The notes under the pieces were generated by a model. It worked only from the letters and a program-made list of their open reading frames with translations. It did not search any database and was not told the DNA's origin. From Pseudomonadota bacterium (GTDB lineage Bacteria > Pseudomonadota > Alphaproteobacteria > Sphingomonadales > Sphingomonadaceae): DNA of 59,911 nt. The DNA lies in contig JAEZQR010000221.1 of NCBI GenBank assembly GCA_023413015.1, positions 1-59,911 of the forward strand, read 5' to 3'. The translations under genes and the position numbers were made by a program. Positions within the stretch are counted from its first letter, which is position 1; each line of letters starts with the position of its first letter. Shown piece after piece: positions 34,750 to 45,274 of this stretch.

Positions 34750-35421
34750 TCAGAAGCGGTAGCCGAGCGACAACTGCACCACCGGATGGAAGCGATAGTC
34801 GTCGATGTCGTTCTCGATCGTCATCCGCTCCGCCTCTAAGTCGGCCGCGAACGCCGGATCATCCGACAGCGTGCCGCCGATCGAGCGCAGGCGGCGGATC
34901 TTCGGCGCGCCCTGGAATATCGCGCCCGCCTCGAAGCCCAGCGCCAGCTGCGGCGCGAGGTCGGTGACGTAGCCGACCATCACCGCCGGCGCCCAGTCGC
35001 GGACGCGGTAGCGCGCGCGCAGCTTGCCGACCTGCGCCGGCGTCACGGTGCGCAAGCCGATGGTGACGTCGCTCGTCGGCGTCGCCTCCAGCCACGCCCG
35101 CTCGCCCGTGACCCGGATGCCGACCGACAGTCGGAAGCCGTTGCCGGTCGGATAATAGTCCAGCATCGCGCCGCCCGAGTGCCGCCGCTTCACGCTGGTG
35201 TCGAAGTCGATGTCGTCGCTCTTCGCGTCAACCTCGAAGAGGTGGGTGTCGATCAGTGTCGCGTTGGCACGGAGCACCAGTTTGTCGTCGAAGCGGTAAC
35301 TGATCTCTGGCCCCACCCCCAGCGTGCCGGCGGTCAGCCCGATGCCGAATGGCTGCTCCTGAGCCACGCTGGGCCCGGCGGCCAGCACCAAGACTGCCAC
35401 CAGAAACATTCCACGCAACAT
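34750..35421 (-). CDS. Hypothetical outer-membrane beta-barrel protein
   Basis: Signal peptide; AGTLGVG, DYYP..NGFRLSVG; C-terminal LGYRF. Start could be 35427, 35421 or 35409. Confidence 0.7.
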   Translation of the reverse strand: MLRGMFLVAVLVLAAGPSVAQEQPFGIGLTAGTLGVGPEISYRFDDKLVLRANATLIDTHLFEVDAKSDDIDFDTSVKRRHSGGAMLDYYPTGNGFRLSVGIRVTGERAWLEATPTSDVTIGLRTVTPAQVGKLRARYRVRDWAPAVMVGYVTDLAPQLALGFEAGAIFQGAPKIRRLRSIGGTLSDDPAFAADLEAERMTIENDIDDYRFHPVVQLSLGYRF

Positions 35422-35555
35422 CCGCAACCCTGTTTTGTACGCAACGAACTGCTCCGCTCAACCCGAAGGCGCGCGCTTCGTTCCCGAAACGGCCGCAGCA
35501 CGAGCCCGCGTCAAACGGGCCGAATGACGTTGCGAAACACCAGCCAAAACCCTAT

Positions 35556-35581
35556 GTTCCCTGTCTGTTCAGGCGGGGTTC
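35556..35581 (+). promoter_or_regulatory. Alphaproteobacterial LexA (SOS) box, triple half-site
   Basis: GTTC-CCTGTCT-GTTC-AGGCGGG-GTTC ending 11 nt before the radA ATG. Confidence 0.75.
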
Positions 35582-35592
35582 GAAAGACGGAA

Positions 35593-36966
<1,374 letters not shown>

Positions 36967-37641: not shown

Positions 37642-38838
37642 ATGCGAGTCCTATTCTATCTGCCGGTCGTAACGCCCTGGTGGTTCGAAAACATCGTCGC
37701 ACCTCTCATCCGAGTCACGGCGTCGGAGGCCGAGGTACATGTGCTTGTGCCCACCTTCTGGAACAGCATCGGCATCGGCCCCACCCAACTGGCGCCCTAC
37801 ACGGACCTACCCCATGTGCATTGGCACCTGATGCCCGGAGAGGAGAATGCCGCCCTCCGCGTATCGGCAGCCGACTGCCCCGAGTTGCTCGACTTCGTGC
37901 ATCAAATCCGTGCGGACTACACCATCTGCCGCAGCGCCGACTTCGAAACGCCAGCCAAGTTCCCCGGCAAGGTGCGCTATCTCATGGAAGGAGGAGTGCC
38001 GCCATTTCCGACCGAGAACCACTGGGCGGTGCTGACATCGCAGCCATTCGACAACGGTTGCCTGCCGGCTCTGCCAGCCGCGGACCGCGAGCGACTGGCT
38101 ACCGCCATCGCTCCGGCTTGGAAGCATATGCACGAGCGCTTCGCGGCAGAAGATCCTTCGCGTGAAGCCGGCCTCGCGGCGCTTGGCCTGCCCACCGACA
38201 AGCGCATCATCGCGCTCCCGCTCGAATATGAGCACCACGAAAATCTGTTCGGAGTGCATCGCTCGTACCAGTCGAATAGAGACGTCGTGCTCGGCATTGC
38301 CGCCCACCTCGGACCCGACGAACTCCTTGCGGTTACTGACCATCCGCTGAATCAACTGCATGTCGACACGACCGAGATGCGTCGCGCTGTCGCTTCGCTT
38401 GGCGATCGTGCCGTGCTCATGCCGAACGTCAGCAAGGATAGCGACGATATTGTCGCGCAGCGCATCAATACAACCGCACGGCTCATTGGCTGCTGCGATG
38501 GCGTTTTCGTCGAGCTTTCGAAGTCATTTTCCGTTGCCGGTTTCTTCGGCACGCCGATGATGCGCAACACACCCTTCCGCACCGGCGGCTGGCTCCGCAG
38601 CTTCAGTAACTTCGATGACTTCCTGAAATCGCTGCGCGCGGGCAAGCGACGGGAGCCAGCCCCTGATGATGCGCGCGTTTGGTTCGGCTTCCACCTGCTG
38701 AACGATGTCATCGACACCCAGCACCTCGACCTTGGGGCGGCGGATATTATCGGACATTTTGAACAGCCGGTGGATCCCCGCCGCTGGGATGCCGCTCTGG
38801 AGCGCTACTGTGAATATGTGCCGGAGCTCTTCGCTTGA
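37642..38838 (+). CDS. Putative KpsS/KpsC-like (capsule synthesis, GT107-like) glycosyltransferase, divergent
   Basis: LMEGG, IALPLEYEHHEN, AVTDHP and CDGVFVELSKS..AGFFGTP occur in the same order as the KpsS-family E.G, PLQ...D, K.HP and S..G.EA...GKP motifs; first gene of a Kdo operon. Confidence 0.5.
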   Translation: MRVLFYLPVVTPWWFENIVAPLIRVTASEAEVHVLVPTFWNSIGIGPTQLAPYTDLPHVHWHLMPGEENAALRVSAADCPELLDFVHQIRADYTICRSADFETPAKFPGKVRYLMEGGVPPFPTENHWAVLTSQPFDNGCLPALPAADRERLATAIAPAWKHMHERFAAEDPSREAGLAALGLPTDKRIIALPLEYEHHENLFGVHRSYQSNRDVVLGIAAHLGPDELLAVTDHPLNQLHVDTTEMRRAVASLGDRAVLMPNVSKDSDDIVAQRINTTARLIGCCDGVFVELSKSFSVAGFFGTPMMRNTPFRTGGWLRSFSNFDDFLKSLRAGKRREPAPDDARVWFGFHLLNDVIDTQHLDLGAADIIGHFEQPVDPRRWDAALERYCEYVPELFA

Positions 38839-39851
38839 GCGCCGCGGCCGCCCTGAAGCGCACCCCGGCACGACCGGTCAAACCTGCCGACGAGACCAAT
38901 GGCTGGTTTCTCGACGTAGTACGGGCGGAACGCGACGCACTGGATGCCTTCATCGCGTCGGTCCCAGCCGGCATTGACGCCATCGTACGACTGATCGCCA
39001 GCCAGATGCGCCCCATCGTCTGCCTCGGCATGGGCAAGTCCGGGTTGGTCGCCGCCAAGCTTGCTGCCACCTTCTCCAGCCTCGGCACGCCCGCTTTCTT
39101 TCTGAACGCCGCCGAGGCCGCGCACGGCGATCTTGGGGCCATACAGACCGGCAACCTCGTCATCCTGTTCTCGAACAGCGGCACGACCGACGAAATCCTG
39201 CGCATCCTGCCGCTGCTGAAGGCGCGCGACTGCACGCTCGTCGGCGTTGTCGGCCGTTCCCCATCACCGCTCGCAGGGGCCGTGGATCATCTGATACTGG
39301 CAAATGTCACGGCCGAGGCCGACCACATCGGCATGGCCCCGACCGCCAGCACGACGCTGCAGATGGCGATCGGCGATGCGCTCGCAGTGGCCGCGAGCCG
39401 GGCGCGCAACTTCACCCGCGCGGATTTCCTGCGCCACCATCCGGCTGGACTACTCGGGCGCCAGTCGATCCCGATCCGCCACCTGATGCGCACTGGCGAT
39501 GATCTGCCCGTTGTATACCCTCACACATCGGCGGCCGAACTGCTCGCTGTCGTATCGGCCAAACGATTAGGGGCTGCCTGCGTCATCGATTGGGAGAATC
39601 GGCTTCTCGGCCTCATCGTTGATGGTGACATCCGCCGCTTGGTCCAGGCGCGGCAGGATCTCTACGCCGCCACGGCCCGCGATCTCATGCAGCCCCACCC
39701 CACCGTCATTGTCGATACCGCCACCGTCGGCGACGTACTGGTGCTGCTCGAAGCCCAAGGCGGCCCCCTGGCCGTGCTCCCGGTCGTCGACACCAACGGC
39801 AGTCTTCAGGGCATGCTCCACACGTACGACGTCGCTCAGGCCAAGGGATAA
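38835..39851 (+). CDS. kdsD: Arabinose-5-phosphate isomerase, KpsF/GutQ family (SIS + 2 CBS)
   Basis: GMGKSG, EAAHGDLG, SNSG, APTAST, HHPAG; TTG start overlapping the upstream stop (TTGA). Confidence 0.9.
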   Translation: MSAAAALKRTPARPVKPADETNGWFLDVVRAERDALDAFIASVPAGIDAIVRLIASQMRPIVCLGMGKSGLVAAKLAATFSSLGTPAFFLNAAEAAHGDLGAIQTGNLVILFSNSGTTDEILRILPLLKARDCTLVGVVGRSPSPLAGAVDHLILANVTAEADHIGMAPTASTTLQMAIGDALAVAASRARNFTRADFLRHHPAGLLGRQSIPIRHLMRTGDDLPVVYPHTSAAELLAVVSAKRLGAACVIDWENRLLGLIVDGDIRRLVQARQDLYAATARDLMQPHPTVIVDTATVGDVLVLLEAQGGPLAVLPVVDTNGSLQGMLHTYDVAQAKG

Positions 39852-39859
39852 TTGTCGTC

Positions 39860-41170
39860 ATGAAGATCGTGGCCTTCGTGCCAGCCAAGGGTACAAGCGA
39901 GCGCATCGCCAACAAGAACCTGCAACTTCTCGACGGCGAGCATCTGTTCAAGCGCAAGCTGCGCCAACTACTCGACTGCGAGCTCATCGACGAAATCTAT
40001 CTCGATACTGAGACGGATGATCTGGCCGCTTACGCCGACGACCTGCCGATCAAGCGCCTGCGCCGCCCCACGAGCCTCGCGACCAATGCGACCGACGGGC
40101 ACGAGATGTTCGCCTATGAGTGCGGCGAGGTTCCCGACGCCGACATCTATGTCCAGTGCCTGTGCACTGCTCCCTTCGTCACTGCCGACACCGTAACTCG
40201 CGCCCTGCGGCGCCTGCTCGACGACCCGGACGCGGACAGCTTGGTCGGTGTGCACCGCGCCAAACATTATCAGTGGGATAACGGGACGCCTCTCTATGGC
40301 ACCGGCCGCATCCCGAACAGCGTCGACCTGCCGGCCTCGATCATTGAGGCGATGAGCCTCTATATCGTCCGCCGCGCCGGTGACGCTCCGCCGACCCGGC
40401 GCTTCGGCGCCCGCCCGATCCTGTTCGACCTCGACCCGCTCGAACAGATCGACGTCAACACACCGGCCGACCTGCAGCTCGCCGAAACCGTCTGCGCCGG
40501 TCAACGCGCTGCCGCGAACGATCGGATGCGCGCGATGCGGGCGCACCTCTCCTCCTCGATGTTGGCCGATATCTGTAAGGATATGGGGCTGAATGCGGTG
40601 CTGCCATCGCGCCTGCGCCCGACCAGCCCCGGCAAAATCTTCGGTCGCGCCAAGACGCTCGCGCTCGCTGCGCTCGACAACGAGGCGCGCCGCACCGATG
40701 CCTGGAAAGGCATCTACGGCGCGCTCGAGTCCTACCGCTTCGTCCGTCCCGGCGATGTTATCATGGTATCGACCGAGGCACCCGAGCGTGCCTACTTCGG
40801 CGACCTGAACGCCAACCTCGCGATCCGGTCGGGGGCGGTCGGCGCCGTGATCGACGGCTTCACCCGCGACACGGCCGACGTGCGTGCGCTCGGCCTGCCG
40901 GTCTATGCGCATGGCGCGCGCTGCGACGACATCAAGTACGAAGGCACGCTCGCCGACATGAACCGTCCGATCGAGATCGGCGGCGTGGCGATTCGCAATG
41001 ACGACTATGTCTTCGCCGACGAGGATGGTGTCATCGTCGTGCCGCGCGAACGGTGGCCTGCAGTCGAGGCCGAAGCGTGGAAGGTCATGGCGAACGAGGC
41101 GCGCATCCGCCTCTATGCAGCGCAAGGCCGGGACGTCGGTGAAATTCTCGCCGAATGTGGTGCATTTTGA
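39860..41170 (+). CDS. Fusion of an acylneuraminate-type cytidylyltransferase and an RraA/HMG-aldolase domain
   Basis: N-terminal [34 protein letters not shown]-terminal GRAKT, PGDVIMV, FGDL.A..A...[24 protein letters not shown]. Confidence 0.85.
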
Positions 41171-41184
41171 TGGAGGCAACGGCC

Positions 41185-42003
41185 ATGCATGCTGTCGAAG
41201 TAGGCCCACTCACCATCGCCAACGATCGGCCGCTGGTGCTTATCGCCGGCCCCTGCGCCATGGAGAGCCGAGATCACGCCATCGAGACGGCCGCCGCGCT
41301 TTCCGAGATGTGCGGCGCGCTTGGCCTCGGGCTGATCTACAAATCCTCCTTCGACAAGGCGAACCGCACGTCGATTAACGCACCGCGCGGAATCGGCATG
41401 GCAAAGGCCCTTGAGGTGTTTGCCGAGGTACGCGAACGCTTTGGCTGTCCAATTGTCACTGATGTTCATGAAGCGACGCAGTGTGCGCCAGTCGCCGAAG
41501 CCGTCGACATGCTGCAGATCCCGGCCTTTCTGTGCCGCCAGACCGATCTGCTCGTCGCCGCCGCGCAAACCGGTCGCGCCGTTAACGTGAAGAAGGGCCA
41601 GTTTCTCGCACCGTGGGACATGGCGAATGTCGCCGCCAAGCTGAAAGCCGCCGGTAACGATCGCATTTTGCTCTGCGAGCGTGGGGCGAGTTTCGGCTAT
41701 AACACGCTCATCAGCGATATGCGCGCGCTGCCGATCCTGGCGCAGACCGGTTTCCCGGTGGTGTTCGACGCGACCCATTCGGTGCAGCAGCCAGGTGGCC
41801 AAGGCGATCGCTCGGGCGGGCAGCGCGAGTTCGTGCCCGTTCTGGCCCGCGCTGCCGTCGCGGTCGGGGTAGCCGCGCTGTTCATTGAGACGCATCAGAA
41901 CCCCGATACCGCACCGAGCGATGGCCCGAACATGGTGCCGCTGCACGAGATGCCAGCGCTCCTCGCCCGACTCCAGCAGTTTGATCGGCTCGCGAAGGCT
42001 TAA
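41185..42003 (+). CDS. kdsA: 3-deoxy-D-manno-octulosonate 8-phosphate synthase (metal-dependent class)
   Basis: AGPCAME, KANRTS, KKGQF, ERG.SFGYN, DATHSVQ, SDG; GGAGG RBS (alternative coupled start 41170). Confidence 0.95.
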
Positions 42004-42797
42004 GCCAGCAGTCGCTCTTGCACCTTCGCCCAAATGTCGGGGTTGCGTGCGATAAGCATCCCCTCGCCGTCCTCGCTTGGCCGATAGGGTGAACCGTCCC
42101 AGCGCGCGACCTTGCCGCCCGCCTCGGTCAGGAACAGCGCTCCCGGCGCGTGATCCCATGCCAGCGTCCGGCGATAGATCGCGAAATGTGGTCCGCTGGT
42201 CGCCACCAGCGGGTATTCCGCTCCCGCACAGCCCAAGCTCGGCGTCAATTCGGCAAGGCCATCGCTCCGGCCATGGATCGCCTCGCTTACGGCCTGCGAC
42301 ATGAACTTGCCGACGGCTCCGTGAAGTACCATCGGCACGTCAACCGAAGTGCGAACCCGCTCGCCGGCGATCCAGGCACCGCTGCCCGCCTCGGCTACCG
42401 CCAGCCGACCGGTCACCGGGTCCAGCAGCCAGCCCGCTACCGTCTGTCCGCGCTCCAGCAACGCCACCATTACCGCAAATGTTGATCGGCCCGCTGCGAA
42501 ATTCGCCGTGCCGTCGAGCGGATCGACAAGCCACACCCGCTTATTGCTTATGCGTGACAGACAATGGGGATTGGCTGCGCAGGCCTCTTCACCGATTACC
42601 AGCGACCCGGGCAACAGGGCCGTCAGCCCGTTCGTGATGATCGCTTCGGCTTCGCGATCCGCCACCGTGACCAGTTCGCCGGGCGATTTCTCGATAATCT
42701 GGTCTGCCGCGAGCGCTCGAAACCTCGGCAGGATCGCCGCCGCTGCGGCCTCACGCAGCAGGTCGCCGACCTTATCGATCAGTTTGACGACCGTCAT
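42000..42797 (-). CDS. Inositol monophosphatase family phosphatase
   Basis: [36 protein letters not shown]. Confidence 0.9.
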
Positions 42798-42862
42798 GCC
42801 TGAAGCCTCTCATCACTCACGATGGCGGCGACTCGTGGAAGCATGGCGGAACCCTGCCTGAT

Positions 42863-45274
42863 CTATTCTGCGGCAATTAGCTCGGGGAGCGCAGTCTCTA
42901 CGGGAACGTGCAAACGTTCCTTGATAGGCCGGAAGGCAACGCTCAGTACGGTTTCTTCGGTCGTCCATGGTGGCGGAACGAGCATAAATCCATGCTTTTC
43001 GACACAGCGGTAGAGGCCGTCAGCTACCACCTCGATTCCCTCGAAATAACACTCGGCATTCTGCCGGACTGCCCCGTCCTCGGCGGCATCCTGGGTCAGA
43101 TCGTGTCCGGCAACGAACCAGGCACCTTCAACTTGTACCCACTCATAGAGTGCGCCAAACTTGATGCCGATAGCGTAACGGCCGGCGCCGACCGGAATAT
43201 TCACGACGAAGTAGCCGTCATGCGTCCGATGCGCCTGCACTTCGGCGTCGATCATGGAACCGCCCTCGGCGACGATAATCGGCAAGGTCAGTTTGCGGTC
43301 ATTGAAGTCCGACTGTTGAATGTCGAGCCCAAAGCGCCGAGCTGCCATCGATGTCAGGCTGATCGGCAGCCCCTGTCCGCGCAACTCGGCCGGCAGGTAC
43401 ATGCGGTCGACCCCGTGCACATAGAATATGCCACGCCGCCGCAGTTCCTGTGCCGCATTTTCAGGATCGAACAGACGCACCGAATGACCGGTGCCGAGAT
43501 TCACATCATGCTCGAACTGCGACAGTGCAGCGAGTTCACTATCGGTCGGCAGATACATGAGCCGCGTCAACGCCGCCATTGCAGCATGACGCCACGACTC
43601 CGCCTCCGATGTCGGGCGACGGTAGAACGCTTGGTCAGCCTCGCGCGTGAACCGTACACAAGCATCTTGTATCATCGAGCGGACCACGCTCTGACCGCCC
43701 TTGAGGACATCGTCGGCGTGCTCAGGCGTTCCGTCCTCACCATAGCCGATCACCGAGCCCAAAGGGATCGTGCTGAGCTGCTCGAGGACCGCCACATTGC
43801 GGCACAGCGCGTGCATCGCCCGGGTATCATAGTGCTGATCGTCGATCAGGCCCCGCTTGTCACTTGTCCGCACATCATGCCGGCGCAGTACCAAGTAGCG
43901 GCCGGCCACGGTGACGCCCATCTCGCGGCGGAGCAGCGGCTCGATATAATCCTGCACTGTACCGGCGTAACCCAGGTCCACCAAGACTAGGACGTCGCCG
44001 CGTTCGGCACCCGTCTGCGCCTTTACATGTGCGACCAGCCGGTCCGCCATCTGGCGGGAGCGTGCCAAAATCGTGCGTATCGTCTGTGGTTTCTGCACGA
44101 GTTCAGCAAACTTGGCTTTGCGGCGCTGGCCGATCGGAAGCAACCCGATGATATGCCTGATCTCACGCTCGTTGAGTAGGAGCCGCTTCGCGACCACCTC
44201 CACCGGCGTATAGTCTAACGTCCGTGCGAGGAAGTCACGGACGCTATCTTTATCGACAAACGAAGTTGCAGCTGAGGTGAAGCGGCTGATCTGAACCGTC
44301 GTTGTGGGATGCTCCGTGCCCAACGCATCGAGCACCAGCTTCGGCAGATGGCCGTCGCGTAGCAGGAATACCAAATGCGTCCGACCCGTCGTCGTCGCGG
44401 CGATCGCTTCAGCCTCCGCCTCCAGCCAGCGCGCGAAGCCGTAGAACACCGGCCCCAGCGCTGCGTAGCCGAGCGCCTCGGCCGGTTCTGCCAGTCGTGG
44501 CTGCGCGACCGCCAAAGCCGCACGGTGCGGCTGAAAGGCCGGCTGCACGACACGCACCCCGGGATCGAACATCACGCCTGCTACCGTCTCCAGGCGTAAC
44601 CGTTCGCGCGTTACCTCGTCGAACTGGACGAGATGGAGAGCTGTCACGCCCATATCCGTGGGTGCCGCAAAGTCGGCCCTCGGGTTATCGCCGATGTGTA
44701 GGACGCGGTTCGGTGCAACCTCAAGCTTGCGCAGCACCGGCTCGAATAGGCCGCCTGACTTGGACGTGCCGAATTCGGACGAGCAGAATATCTGATCGAT
44801 AAGCTCGATCACCTCGTCTCCCGCAACTGTGCGGATCAGCTCGGTCAGTTGCGTCTCGCTCAGGTACGTGTCGCTGACGATGACTACCTTCAGCCCACGC
44901 CGCTTGGCGCTGCGCATCAGCTCGACCGCCGGTCGGAAAGCGTAGCAATGCCGCCTCTCAGCCGCCAGCTCGGCCGCTACACCCGCGCTTCTGACCGCCT
45001 CATCGGCATCTGGCATAAGGTCACGATAGATTTCCTCGATCGTCACCTCGTTACTACTGCGTAAAACCCGGGAGTAGGTGCGCGCAATAAGCTCGGCGAA
45101 TGTACGCTGGTGGGGATCCACGCCCGGCAGCCCCAGATCGGCGAACACGTCCTTAGGGGCGTTCACGTTGCGCCAGATCAGCGTGTCGAAGCAGTCCAGC
45201 GACAGAACGTCGACGTCGAAGCTCCTGTCCTCGAGAAGGGTCGCGAGCTCATGCGGGTAAACGGCGTCGGTCAC
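42863..45274 (-). CDS. HAD phosphatase + PRTase-like multidomain protein, candidate PRPP-dependent ribofuranosyltransferase
   Basis: HAD motifs SLDCFDTL, IVSDTY, SSEFGTSK, HIGDN..AD; second domain FLLRDG, ISRF, VLVDLGYAGTVQ (PRPP-loop-like). Confidence 0.7.
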   Translation of the reverse strand: MTDAVYPHELATLLEDRSFDVDVLSLDCFDTLIWRNVNAPKDVFADLGLPGVDPHQRTFAELIARTYSRVLRSSNEVTIEEIYRDLMPDADEAVRSAGVAAELAAERRHCYAFRPAVELMRSAKRRGLKVVIVSDTYLSETQLTELIRTVAGDEVIELIDQIFCSSEFGTSKSGGLFEPVLRKLEVAPNRVLHIGDNPRADFAAPTDMGVTALHLVQFDEVTRERLRLETVAGVMFDPGVRVVQPAFQPHRAALAVAQPRLAEPAEALGYAALGPVFYGFARWLEAEAEAIAATTTGRTHLVFLLRDGHLPKLVLDALGTEHPTTTVQISRFTSAATSFVDKDSVRDFLARTLDYTPVEVVAKRLLLNEREIRHIIGLLPIGQRRKAKFAELVQKPQTIRTILARSRQMADRLVAHVKAQTGAERGDVLVLVDLGYAGTVQDYIEPLLRREMGVTVAGRYLVLRRHDVRTSDKRGLIDDQHYDTRAMHALCRNVAVLEQLSTIPLGSVIGYGEDGTPEHADDVLKGGQSVVRSMIQDACVRFTREADQAFYRRPTSEAESWRHAAMAALTRLMYLPTDSELAALSQFEHDVNLGTGHSVRLFDPENAAQELRRRGIFYVHGVDRMYLPAELRGQGLPISLTSMAARRFGLDIQQSDFNDRKLTLPIIVAEGGSMIDAEVQAHRTHDGYFVVNIPVGAGRYAIGIKFGALYEWVQVEGAWFVAGHDLTQDAAEDGAVRQNAECYFEGIEVVADGLYRCVEKHGFMLVPPPWTTEETVLSVAFRPIKERLHVPVETALPELIAAE

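Follow-up and report, generated by a model that had tools for sequence, protein, structure and literature searches.

A cytidylyltransferase fused to an RraA-like, aldolase-type domain in a candidate Kdo/ribofuranose polymer island of a sphingomonad

We analysed a 59,911-nucleotide stretch of sphingomonad DNA (contig JAEZQR010000221.1 of assembly GCA_023413015.1; hereafter the window), in which a 7.7 kb island of six genes (37642-45274) includes, as the third gene of its forward-strand run, a cytidylyltransferase fused to an RraA-like domain (Table 1). [quoted passage not shown] The kpsF stop codon is found 8 nt upstream of the fusion gene, whereas the fusion stop and the kdsA ATG share one nucleotide (TGATG). 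The same description had reported one continuous open reading frame (ORF) of 436 residues with a cytidylyltransferase and an RraA-type half. The ORF list, the translation and the Pfam searches agree: a single unbroken frame runs from the ATG at 39860 to the TGA at 41168-41170, with a start backed by homologues whose alignments begin at residue 1-2, and it contains CTP_transf_3 followed by RraA-like, both above the Pfam gathering threshold. Both halves remained below every curated NCBIfam cut-off, and the databases label members of the family only as 'RraA family protein' or 'cytidylyltransferase domain-containing protein'. The full-length AlphaFold2 (AF2) model, based on 38 homologues, had a pLDDT of 88.2 and a pTM of 0.86. 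Full-length fused homologues carrying both domains are abundant in protein, metagenome and viral searches, which rules out an assembly artefact. The fusion is thus a genuine bifunctional protein of a widespread family known so far only in silico. Proteins, loci and genomes used for comparison carry P, L and G numbers, respectively.

Table 1. Features of the island and of the fusion protein, with positions in the window. HAD, haloacid dehalogenase; PRPP, phosphoribosyl pyrophosphate; CMP, cytidine monophosphate.
Feature	Position	Strand	Basis
Cytidylyltransferase/RraA-like fusion (P0001), 436 aa	39860..41170	+	ORF list, translation and domain searches
CMP-ulosonate synthetase-type domain (CTP_transf_3), fusion residues 1-200	39860..40459	+	PF02348; PDB 9t4z
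Long linker helix, fusion residues 201-229	40460..40546	+	AF2 helix at 202-227
RraA-like / class II pyruvate-aldolase-type domain, fusion residues 230-436	40547..41167	+	PF03737; 3NOJ
Catalytic-equivalent R336-D337 of the fusion	nt 40865-40870	+	Alignment to 3NOJ
P0002, candidate retaining beta-Kdo-type glycosyltransferase (KpsS/KpsC/WbbB-like fold), 398 aa	37642..38838	+	Structural matches; first operon gene
kpsF/kdsD, arabinose-5-phosphate isomerase	38835..39851	+	TIGR00393 KpsF/GutQ, 225.4 bits vs 203.7; Pfam SIS and CBS
kdsA, Kdo-8-phosphate synthase	41170..42003	+	NF003543, 432.9 bits vs 242; TIGR01362, 407.7 vs 314
P0005, inositol-monophosphatase-family phosphatase	42000..42797	-	PF00459, 145.7 bits; below all NCBIfam equivalog cut-offs
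P0006, PRPP-type glycan ribofuranosyltransferase with HAD phosphoribosyl-phosphatase module, 803 aa	42863..45274	-	Profile vs PDB

Judging from its sequence, the N-terminal domain is a CMP-ulosonic acid synthetase of the NeuA/KdsB superfamily. The CTP_transf_3 match (residues 5-129, 44.5 bits against a cut-off of 22.6) covers positions 2-126 of the 217 of the profile, that is, its first half only. A 13-residue motif of the nucleotide-binding pattern P-A-K/R-x-x-S-x-R-x-x-x-K-N occupies residues 8-20, and the C-terminal acidic residues of such enzymes are present as well. Conservation was counted, here and below, over an alignment of 34 fused representatives with 31-66% identity to the window protein. 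K10 is kept in 31 of them, S13 in 33, R15, K19 and N20 each in 32, and the C-terminal acids D198 and D204 in 32 and 31, respectively; D79, G80, T103 and P105 are likewise kept in 31-34 of the 34. The preliminary description had called this half NeuA-like rather than KdsB-like, and three kinds of comparison back this view. Among the NCBIfam models, PseF (TIGR03584) gave 45.1 bits (cut-off 205.7) and the best KdsB-type model 32 bits (cut-off 193); of the KdsB equivalog models TIGR00466 and NF003952, the former was absent among the matches listed. The top PDB sequence match was the CMP-Kdn synthetase 9t4z (residues 2-207, E value 7.6e-13). Foldseek with the AF2 model ranked NeuA-type chains above KdsB chains (matches to 9t4z, E value 6.3e-14, and to 1eyr, 6ifd, 9ftc and 1h6j).

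The C-terminal half matches the Pfam RraA-like profile over its whole length (fusion residues 235-393, profile positions 4-152 of 152) with 101.6 bits against a cut-off of 24.5. Curated NCBIfam models fit it less well: PRK08245 scored 82 bits, below its cut-off, the LigK models TIGR02798 and NF006731 scored 72 (304.5 required) and 77 (179 required), and the model of RraA (NF006875), a separate protein of ~160 aa that binds RNase E and inhibits it, 43.8 (136 required). Its top PDB match was the HMG/CHA aldolase of P. putida (HMG, 4-hydroxy-4-methyl-2-oxoglutarate; CHA, 4-carboxy-4-hydroxy-2-oxoadipate; 3NOJ, E value 1.4e-16), with a Foldseek identity of 30%. The GDL...DG..RD residues noticed in the preliminary description are indeed present, as G314-D315-L316 ... 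D332-G333 ... R336-D337. Counting positions along the phmmer alignment to 3NOJ, R336-D337 corresponds to Arg-123-Asp-124 and D315 to Asp-102 of the aldolase. In that enzyme, Arg-123 is reported to be essential for stabilisation of the pyruvate enolate, and Asp-124 and Glu-199 to be the acidic metal-binding residues (PMC5065237). G314, R336, D357, D387 and E413 are invariant in all 34 fused representatives, and D337 and Y286 are each found in 33. E413 aligns by phmmer to Glu-201, two residues from Glu-199, and shares its alignment column with a Glu of a sphingomonad RraA-like protein (genome G163, locus L094) that is 39% identical to the C-terminal domain. The gene of this protein adjoins PrpF and Amidohydro_2 genes, which we take to be a LigK-type context. 

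Around this core, the phosphate/distal-carboxylate pocket of the aldolase is replaced in the fusion, with Gly-144 substituted by D357, His-75 by Y286, Thr-145 by I358, Lys-147 by E361 and Arg-195 by K408, so that the known aldolase substrates are unlikely for the fusion. The L094 protein retains Gly at the D357 position, and the 'D-[IV]-K' signature at 357-359 is common to the stand-alone relatives P0171, P0196 and P0199. At the level of aligned residues, the enolate/metal core is therefore preserved in the fusion and the distal substrate pocket is different. Mean pairwise identity among the fused representatives was 0.38 for the cytidylyltransferase domain and 0.35 for the RraA-like domain, with the linker helix lowest (0.27); the C-terminal domain is thus conserved to nearly the level of its partner and looks ligand-competent. 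This conserved and apparently competent aldolase-type domain is, to us, the most interesting point of the fusion. A model of three copies of residues 225-436 reached a score of 0.87, against 0.00 for the best control, the runs agreeing in at least 93% of contacts with partner pLDDT values of at least 88; in the calibration of the method, whose counts hold only roughly here, 20 of 30 proteins solved as pairs passed this mark, as did 1 of 23 solved as single chains. Residues 314-316, 336-339 and 352-360 of one copy face residues 231-250, 387-392 and 416-430 of the next; the confident interface residues named on the helix of E413 are 416-417 and 420-421, and E413 itself is not among them. The trimer shows likeness to solved RraA-type trimers and may reflect structures already learned by the modelling program. 

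As a separate observation, another sphingomonad genome contains two tandem stand-alone RraA-like genes beside a glyoxalase-family gene (L096:7824-9169), unrelated to glycan genes.

A protein search with the fusion gave 999 matches at E ≤ 0.001 among 8000 scored candidates. The 120 matches listed were all 436-453 aa long, with 100% query cover, 64-75% identity and both Pfam domains, and the organisms named among them were Sphingomonadales or unclassified Alphaproteobacteria/Pseudomonadota metagenome-assembled genomes. A search of 1.84 billion representatives returned 8240 matches at E ≤ 0.001, of which 1413 reached 1e-10 or better and 83 reached 1e-30 or better; among them are ~40 clusters of full-length fusions, the most distant at 31% identity. 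A search from the low-GC member P0130 scored 7998 candidates, 1411 of which reached E ≤ 1e-30, and the organisms named among the matches listed were Arcobacteraceae, Aliarcobacter butzleri, Microbulbifer agarilyticus and Halanaerobium praevalens. A metagenome scan with a profile made from 10 sequences yielded 392 relatives, 80 of which were kept as loci for analysis (GC content 0.22-0.73), and a scan of viral contigs yielded 38 loci with a full-length copy (L098-L135), 34 of them at 48-50% identity to the window protein. Within the Sphingomonadales the fusion is sporadic, with a full-length match in 3 of 301 sampled genomes.

The other genes of the island supply a coherent context. P0002, whose stop codon overlaps a possible TTG start of kpsF, had no match in Pfam, NCBIfam or PDB sequence searches. 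Structural alignment of an Atlas model of this protein (pTM 0.89) to clusters of Capsule_synth (PF05159) gave a TM score of 0.66. Foldseek with its own, poor AF2 model returned generic GT-B folds, the highest listed TM scores being those of WbbB (0.45-0.49), KpsC (0.41/0.52) and KrkA (0.36/0.40), and these matches are suggestive. Homologues of P0002 occupy the same position in L001, L002, L008 and L009. The longest kdsA ORF begins at 41155, and it is the ATG at 41170 that overlaps the fusion stop. P0005 is a candidate Kdo-8-phosphate phosphatase or, alternatively, a CysQ-like enzyme; genes of its type are convergent to kdsA in L001, L002 and L009, and inositol-monophosphatase (IMPase)-like neighbours of the fusion were confined to sphingomonad loci (2 of 82 loci). 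P0006 has HAD Pfam matches at residues 70-213, and a profile made from it and four homologues matched a PDB entry named 'Ribofuranosyl transferase' (7shg, E value 3.9e-24, stretches 103-224 and 382-599) as well as residues 385-844 of Bcs3 (E value 1.1e-20). Such enzymes are described as pairing a PRPP-dependent glycan phosphoribosyltransferase with a HAD phosphoribosyl phosphatase (PMC11231755; PMC12887879). The fusion is the only candidate cytidylyltransferase of the island, and we saw no genes for kps export in the window. By annotation, the island plausibly contains a complete set of parts for a Kdo/ribofuranose polymer.

The gene order P0002-like/kpsF/fusion/kdsA/IMPase, the last on the opposite strand, also holds, as far as the loci reach, in Sphingosinicella terrae (L001), Sphingomonas horti (L002) and two genomes of the same order (L008, L009). 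In the window the island sits between cvpA and cysS. The GC content at third codon positions (GC3) of its six genes is 0.72-0.81, against 0.84-0.93 in the flanking radA, cvpA, cysS and others. The housekeeping genes that flank it are not found around the orthologous islands L001 and L002, which lie in other chromosomal surroundings. The different flanks and the lower GC3 indicate that the block moved or was acquired; no tRNA or integrase was seen in the window.

With regard to the flanking genes themselves, the longest radA ORF (35179-36966) starts ~140 codons before its first domain match (a zinc ribbon, residue 146) and overlaps an opposite-strand ORF (34750-35427), so that the true radA start is probably later.

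The host background was read from the genomes of four fusion-bearing relatives. None of the five sphingomonad genomes examined (G001, G002, G109, G301 and G087), the four fusion carriers included, gave an LpxC match, and neither a WaaA-type Kdo transferase domain nor KdsC was found in G001 or G002. None of the four carriers has a KdsB above cut-off; G109 contains a sub-threshold match (127 bits) beside canonical KpsS/KpsC genes. Each of them has one KdsA above cut-off, which adjoins the fusion, and both kpsF and kdsA adjoin the fusion in the window and in all four genomes. Since the single KdsA lies beside the fusion and there is no KdsB above cut-off, the fusion is the only good candidate activator of the KdsA product. 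Moreover, these hosts show no housekeeping Kdo supply and their synthase gene accompanies the fusion, which therefore most likely activates the KdsA-derived sugar rather than making a second one. That its N-terminal domain is the CMP-Kdo-type synthetase of the island is our firmest conclusion, with Kdo as the presumed substrate. Kdo in these sphingomonads seems to serve glycans other than lipopolysaccharide (LPS). We also considered that Kdo genes in the Sphingomonadales might be limited to fusion carriers and rejected this, as KdsA occurs above cut-off in 79 of the 301 genomes and the full fusion in only three; most KdsA-bearing genomes of the order must use another cytidylyltransferase.

Gene neighbourhoods elsewhere were compared by clustering 620 ORFs from 83 sources and by Pfam scans of neighbours (130 + 49 + 49 proteins), with counts over the 49 metagenome loci having at least 4 kb of flank. 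A P0006-type or KpsC-like transferase cluster was near the fusion in 20 of the 49, a count that spans two modules merged by single-linkage clustering. KpsF was near in 15 loci, KdsA in 13 and one or the other in 18; an ABC-transporter ATPase was present in 15, several with a Wzt C-terminal domain, and a TylF-like O-methyltransferase, which hints at an O-methylated Kdo-type sugar, in 12. Nine of the 49 had none of the four main neighbour families. Counted over 82 loci, KdsA lies beside the RraA-like part in 19. Four types of transferase were found as neighbours: Capsule_synth/KpsC-like (L035, L062, L066, L067, L070, L072, L076, L084, L088 and L092), Maf/MptE-like (L015, L016, L022, L051 and L080), polysialyltransferase-like (L025 and L033) and, on the viral contig L098, a GT29 sialyltransferase-like gene directly upstream of the fusion. 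These four types use CMP-ulosonic acids, which supports a working cytidylyltransferase. For the transferase module of L072 the PDB search gave no meaningful sequence match. In L067 (9410-12982) and L092 (1545-5048), proteins of ~1170-1190 aa that join KpsC-like (weak Capsule_synth) and P0006-like modules lie directly downstream of the fusion. Further neighbours include flagellin or FliD and sulfotransferases. In L064 the order is KpsF-KdsA-fusion-KdsC, with a true KdsC (133 bits against 107) and the fusion in the position of KdsB; other phosphatases adjoining the fusion are His_Phos_1 (L022, L027, L029 and L049) and PHP (L016). L066 and L073 contain a second, PseF-like cytidylyltransferase, a true PseF by score in L066, which also has NeuB; this is a separate nonulosonate pathway. 

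On viral contigs the neighbours include phage-type RecA-like and DnaB-like genes, FkbM methyltransferases, GDP-mannose dehydratase, cupin/CTP_transf_like and radical SAM genes. KdsA and KpsF were not found within 6 kb of the fusion in 37 of the 38 viral loci; in the exception, L108 (4500-8657), a KdsA with an attached TylF-like methyltransferase precedes the fusion, and a KdsC-KpsF follows on the other strand.

The RraA-like part also occurs in other architectures. P0272 (1042 aa) strings together Rpe, a class-II DAHP-synthase-like domain (DAHP, 3-deoxy-arabino-heptulosonate 7-phosphate), a cytidylyltransferase and an RraA-like domain that keeps the RD motif; a whole pathway to a sugar of heptulosonic type might thus be housed in one protein. 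Longer multi-domain forms of the fusion were not found at E ≤ 1e-10, which is weak evidence, and P0272 did come from another search. The nearest relatives of the cytidylyltransferase domain that lack an RraA-like partner carry a KdsC-like HAD (P0208, P0209 and P0211) or Maf/MptE (P0182) instead. [quoted passage not shown] The RraA-like part thus travels with KdsA, NeuB or a DAHP-synthase-like enzyme, which points to a step other than synthesis, probably one acting on the C1-C4 keto-deoxy end common to the products of these synthases.

From the domain identities, the residue conservation, the synteny and the phyletic pattern we infer Kdo as the substrate, a polymer as the product and catalysis by the C-terminal domain. 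We favour, with modest confidence, a reading in which the fusion is the CMP-Kdo-type synthetase of a Kdo/ribofuranose polymer island and its C-terminal domain acts catalytically on the ulosonate. In such a pathway, KpsF would convert ribulose 5-phosphate into arabinose 5-phosphate, which KdsA would condense with phosphoenolpyruvate (PEP) to Kdo-8-phosphate. A phosphatase, probably the IMPase-like P0005, would act next, and from the product of these neighbours the N-terminal domain would most likely make CMP-Kdo or the CMP form of a close Kdo derivative. P0002, as a beta-Kdo-transferase-like enzyme, and P0006, as a PRPP-dependent ribofuranosyltransferase/phosphatase, would use the activated sugar to build a surface polysaccharide containing Kdo and ribofuranose, of the type of Escherichia coli K13, in a sphingomonad without LPS-type Kdo genes. 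The C-terminal domain would be a trimer-forming module of class II pyruvate-aldolase type with its metal/enolate residues intact. It may bind the open-chain ulosonate by its 2-keto-3-deoxy-acid end and perform one additional step before activation. This step could be a retro-aldol cleavage followed by re-addition, amounting to editing or to C4 epimerisation, or else an enolate reaction of a related kind; the domain would not be a synthase.

A number of points weigh against this reading. An RraA-like domain would be superfluous if the product were CMP-Kdo, and CMP-Kdo synthetases dedicated to capsules, such as KpsU (PDB 1h6j and 1h7e), do without one. The cytidylyltransferase domain is nearer to NeuA, PseF and the CMP-Kdn synthetase than to KdsB and may activate a sugar other than plain Kdo. 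In L034 the cluster that carries the fusion also encodes a true KdsB joined to a true KdsC (206 bits with a cut-off of 155, and 129 bits with a cut-off of 107), and L080 has a second cytidylyltransferase beside Kdo genes, so the fusion is not simply a substitute for KdsB everywhere and its product may differ from CMP-Kdo. In the C-terminal domain, besides the replacement of the aldolase pocket described above, D315, the equivalent of Asp-102, is D or E in just 26 of the 34 representatives. In two fused members, P0173 and P0183, the cytidylyltransferase motif has degenerated and the RD motif of the C-terminal domain is kept. The polymer assignment leans on P0002, whose own AF2 model, built from 3 sequences, has a pLDDT of only 65. 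Lastly, no member of the family has been assayed, and a review states that none of the Kdo-pathway activities of Cafeteria roenbergensis virus (CroV), which encodes a similar protein (see below), has been validated (PMC9614988).

Other roles for the RraA-like domain must be weighed against these data. The preliminary description had proposed that the fusion makes and immediately CMP-activates a second ulosonic acid alongside the KdsA product: an aldose and pyruvate, or oxaloacetate that loses CO2, would be condensed by the RraA-like domain into a second 3-deoxy-2-ulosonic acid, activated by the N-terminal domain. In favour of such a reaction, the domain has the catalytic residues typical of class II pyruvate aldolases intact; neither KdsA nor KpsF is nearby in 31 of the 49 metagenome loci or in 37 of the 38 viral loci, some loci contain little beyond the fusion and a transferase (e.g., L025, L030 and L033), and the second cytidylyltransferase of L034 and L080 fits a distinct sugar. 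We nevertheless regard this proposal as improbable, and the host comparison does not support it: the strongest argument is that the sphingomonad carriers always pair the fusion with their own kpsF and kdsA, in four of four genomes without LpxC or an above-cut-off KdsB, and that the fusion is their only candidate activator of the KdsA product. In addition, KdsA, NeuB (L095) and DAHP_synth_2 (P0272) are kept together with the RraA-like part, whereas a true synthase would be expected to replace them, and the loci devoid of KdsA are probably in hosts that make Kdo for LPS. The fusion may also recycle or proofread Kdo, as the same description had suggested. In a more specific variant of a catalytic role, which we consider rather unlikely, the RraA-like domain would open Kdo, or a product of a NeuB- or DAHP-synthase-type enzyme, at C3-C4 by a metal-dependent retro-aldol reaction and re-close it to a C4 epimer or edited acid that only the fused cytidylyltransferase accepts; the invariant D357 and the NeuA-like cytidylyltransferase would be the marks of this specificity.

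A non-catalytic role is doubtful in our view, though it accounts for several of the observations. The RraA-like domain would trimerise the enzyme, much like the accessory C-terminal domains of other CMP-sugar synthetases, or allosterically sense pyruvate, PEP or oxaloacetate and so tune the synthesis of CMP-Kdo, and perform no sugar chemistry. The confident trimer model of this domain would suit such a function, as would the other partners borne by the closest relatives of the cytidylyltransferase (HAD in P0208, P0209 and P0211; MptE in P0182) and the non-conservation of the aldolase phosphate/carboxylate pocket, and E. coli RraA is reported to act as a binding protein (PMC5065237). However, the equivalent of the catalytic Arg, the Asp and the Glu presumed to bind metal, and D357, which is specific to the family, are near-invariant down to 31% identity, and a scaffold would not need them; moreover, the RraA-like gene is separate in L095, where it offers no covalently attached oligomerisation platform, and the two members with a decayed cytidylyltransferase motif keep the RD of the C-terminal domain. 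We largely rejected a further idea, that the RraA-like domain takes the place of KdsC and removes the 8-phosphate of Kdo-8-phosphate, the one step that a route from KdsA to the cytidylyltransferase still lacks. A KdsC-like HAD does stand in the same C-terminal position in P0208, P0209, P0211 and L034, P0272 strings its domains together without a phosphatase, KdsC was not found in G001 or G002, and the HMG/CHA aldolase is reported to bind phosphate near Arg-123 (PMC5065237). Yet four phosphatase families adjoin the fusion (KdsC in L064, His_Phos_1, PHP in L016 and an IMPase-like enzyme in all sphingomonad loci), and the invariant D357, in what is the phosphate pocket of the aldolase, would repel phosphate. 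We know of no phosphatase with the RraA fold, and this substitution is very improbable.

The family is found in several phyla, in loci for capsules, O-antigens, flagellin glycosylation and viral glycans. Should its aldolase-type half be catalytic, as we favour, ulosonic acid biosynthesis would include an unrecognised step and possibly an unrecognised sugar, which would matter for capsule typing, for glycoengineering and for how viral glycan genes are read. Were the retro-aldol tailoring of the ulosonate true, the family would make a CMP-activated octulosonic acid other than Kdo, and this sugar would be widespread, though unrecognised, in capsules and O-antigen caps as well as in flagellin and viral glycans. 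A Kdo/ribofuranose polymer, a use of Kdo outside LPS, is probably made by some LPS-less sphingomonads. Their islands provide a clean background, in which we detected no Kdo genes of the LPS type and which has only one kdsA and one candidate cytidylyltransferase, so that each half of the fusion can be tested free of essential LPS synthesis.

Compared with KdsB/KpsU (EC 2.7.7.38), the fusion shares the PF02348 superfamily and fold (Foldseek matches 1h6j, 1h7e, 1gqc and 4xwi) and the genomic role beside KdsA and KpsF, but it scores far below the KdsB cut-off and has an extra domain of 230 residues. With the HMG/CHA aldolase (LigK, 3NOJ) it shares the equivalents of Arg-123, Asp-124 and Asp-102, and the trimer model places the site at the subunit interface, as in that enzyme. 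Unlike the L094 gene, however, the fusion has Kdo and glycan genes rather than protocatechuate-pathway genes as neighbours. The substrate is expected to differ from the HMG/CHA aldolase's because the LigK score, the neighbours and the pocket residues all differ. FlDet of Flavobacterium sp. UMI-01, an RraA-like enzyme acting on a 2-keto-3-deoxy sugar acid, can be likened to the C-terminal domain by its published description as a 2-keto-3-deoxy-hexarate dehydratase/decarboxylase; it differs in being catabolic and stand-alone and in its substrate (PMC8563752).

A literature search found no paper on an RraA or RraA-like domain joined to a cytidylyltransferase under those terms. We take the label 'demethylmenaquinone methyltransferase' to be an old name for RraA/MenG. 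This label is given to the C-terminal domain of crov266 of CroV, whose N-terminal domain is tentatively described as a CMP-Kdo synthetase and groups in phylogeny with CMP-NeuAc (N-acetylneuraminic acid) synthetases (PMC9614988). Going by that description, crov266 has the same two-domain architecture as the fusion of the window, an architecture that is therefore already in print under an outdated label. The resemblance extends to the neighbours, as crov266 lies beside arabinose-5-phosphate isomerase, Kdo-8-phosphate synthase and Kdo-8-phosphate phosphatase (crov265-267), and the viral contig L108 has the same arrangement. As far as the description goes, the partner genes of CroV are themselves fused, with a 3-O-methyltransferase joined to the Kdo-8-phosphate synthase in crov267 (PMC9614988), whereas those of the window are separate, lack a methyltransferase and are accompanied instead by the IMPase-like phosphatase and the ribofuranosyltransferase.

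At the level of the whole island, the predicted gene set resembles the parts list of the Kdo-ribose capsule of E. coli K13. There, KrkA is reported to join a retaining Kdo transferase (GT140) to a ribosyltransferase and to make the Ribf-Kdo repeat (PMC12887879). P0002 and P0006 would represent these two activities in separate proteins, and the large proteins of L067 and L092 have a KrkA-type layout. P0002 differs in having no detectable sequence similarity to KrkA, WbbB or KpsC, and its structural match is weak. Region 2 of the K13 locus is reported to be without a dedicated CMP-Kdo synthetase (PMC12887879), whereas the sphingomonad island carries its own candidate in the fusion.

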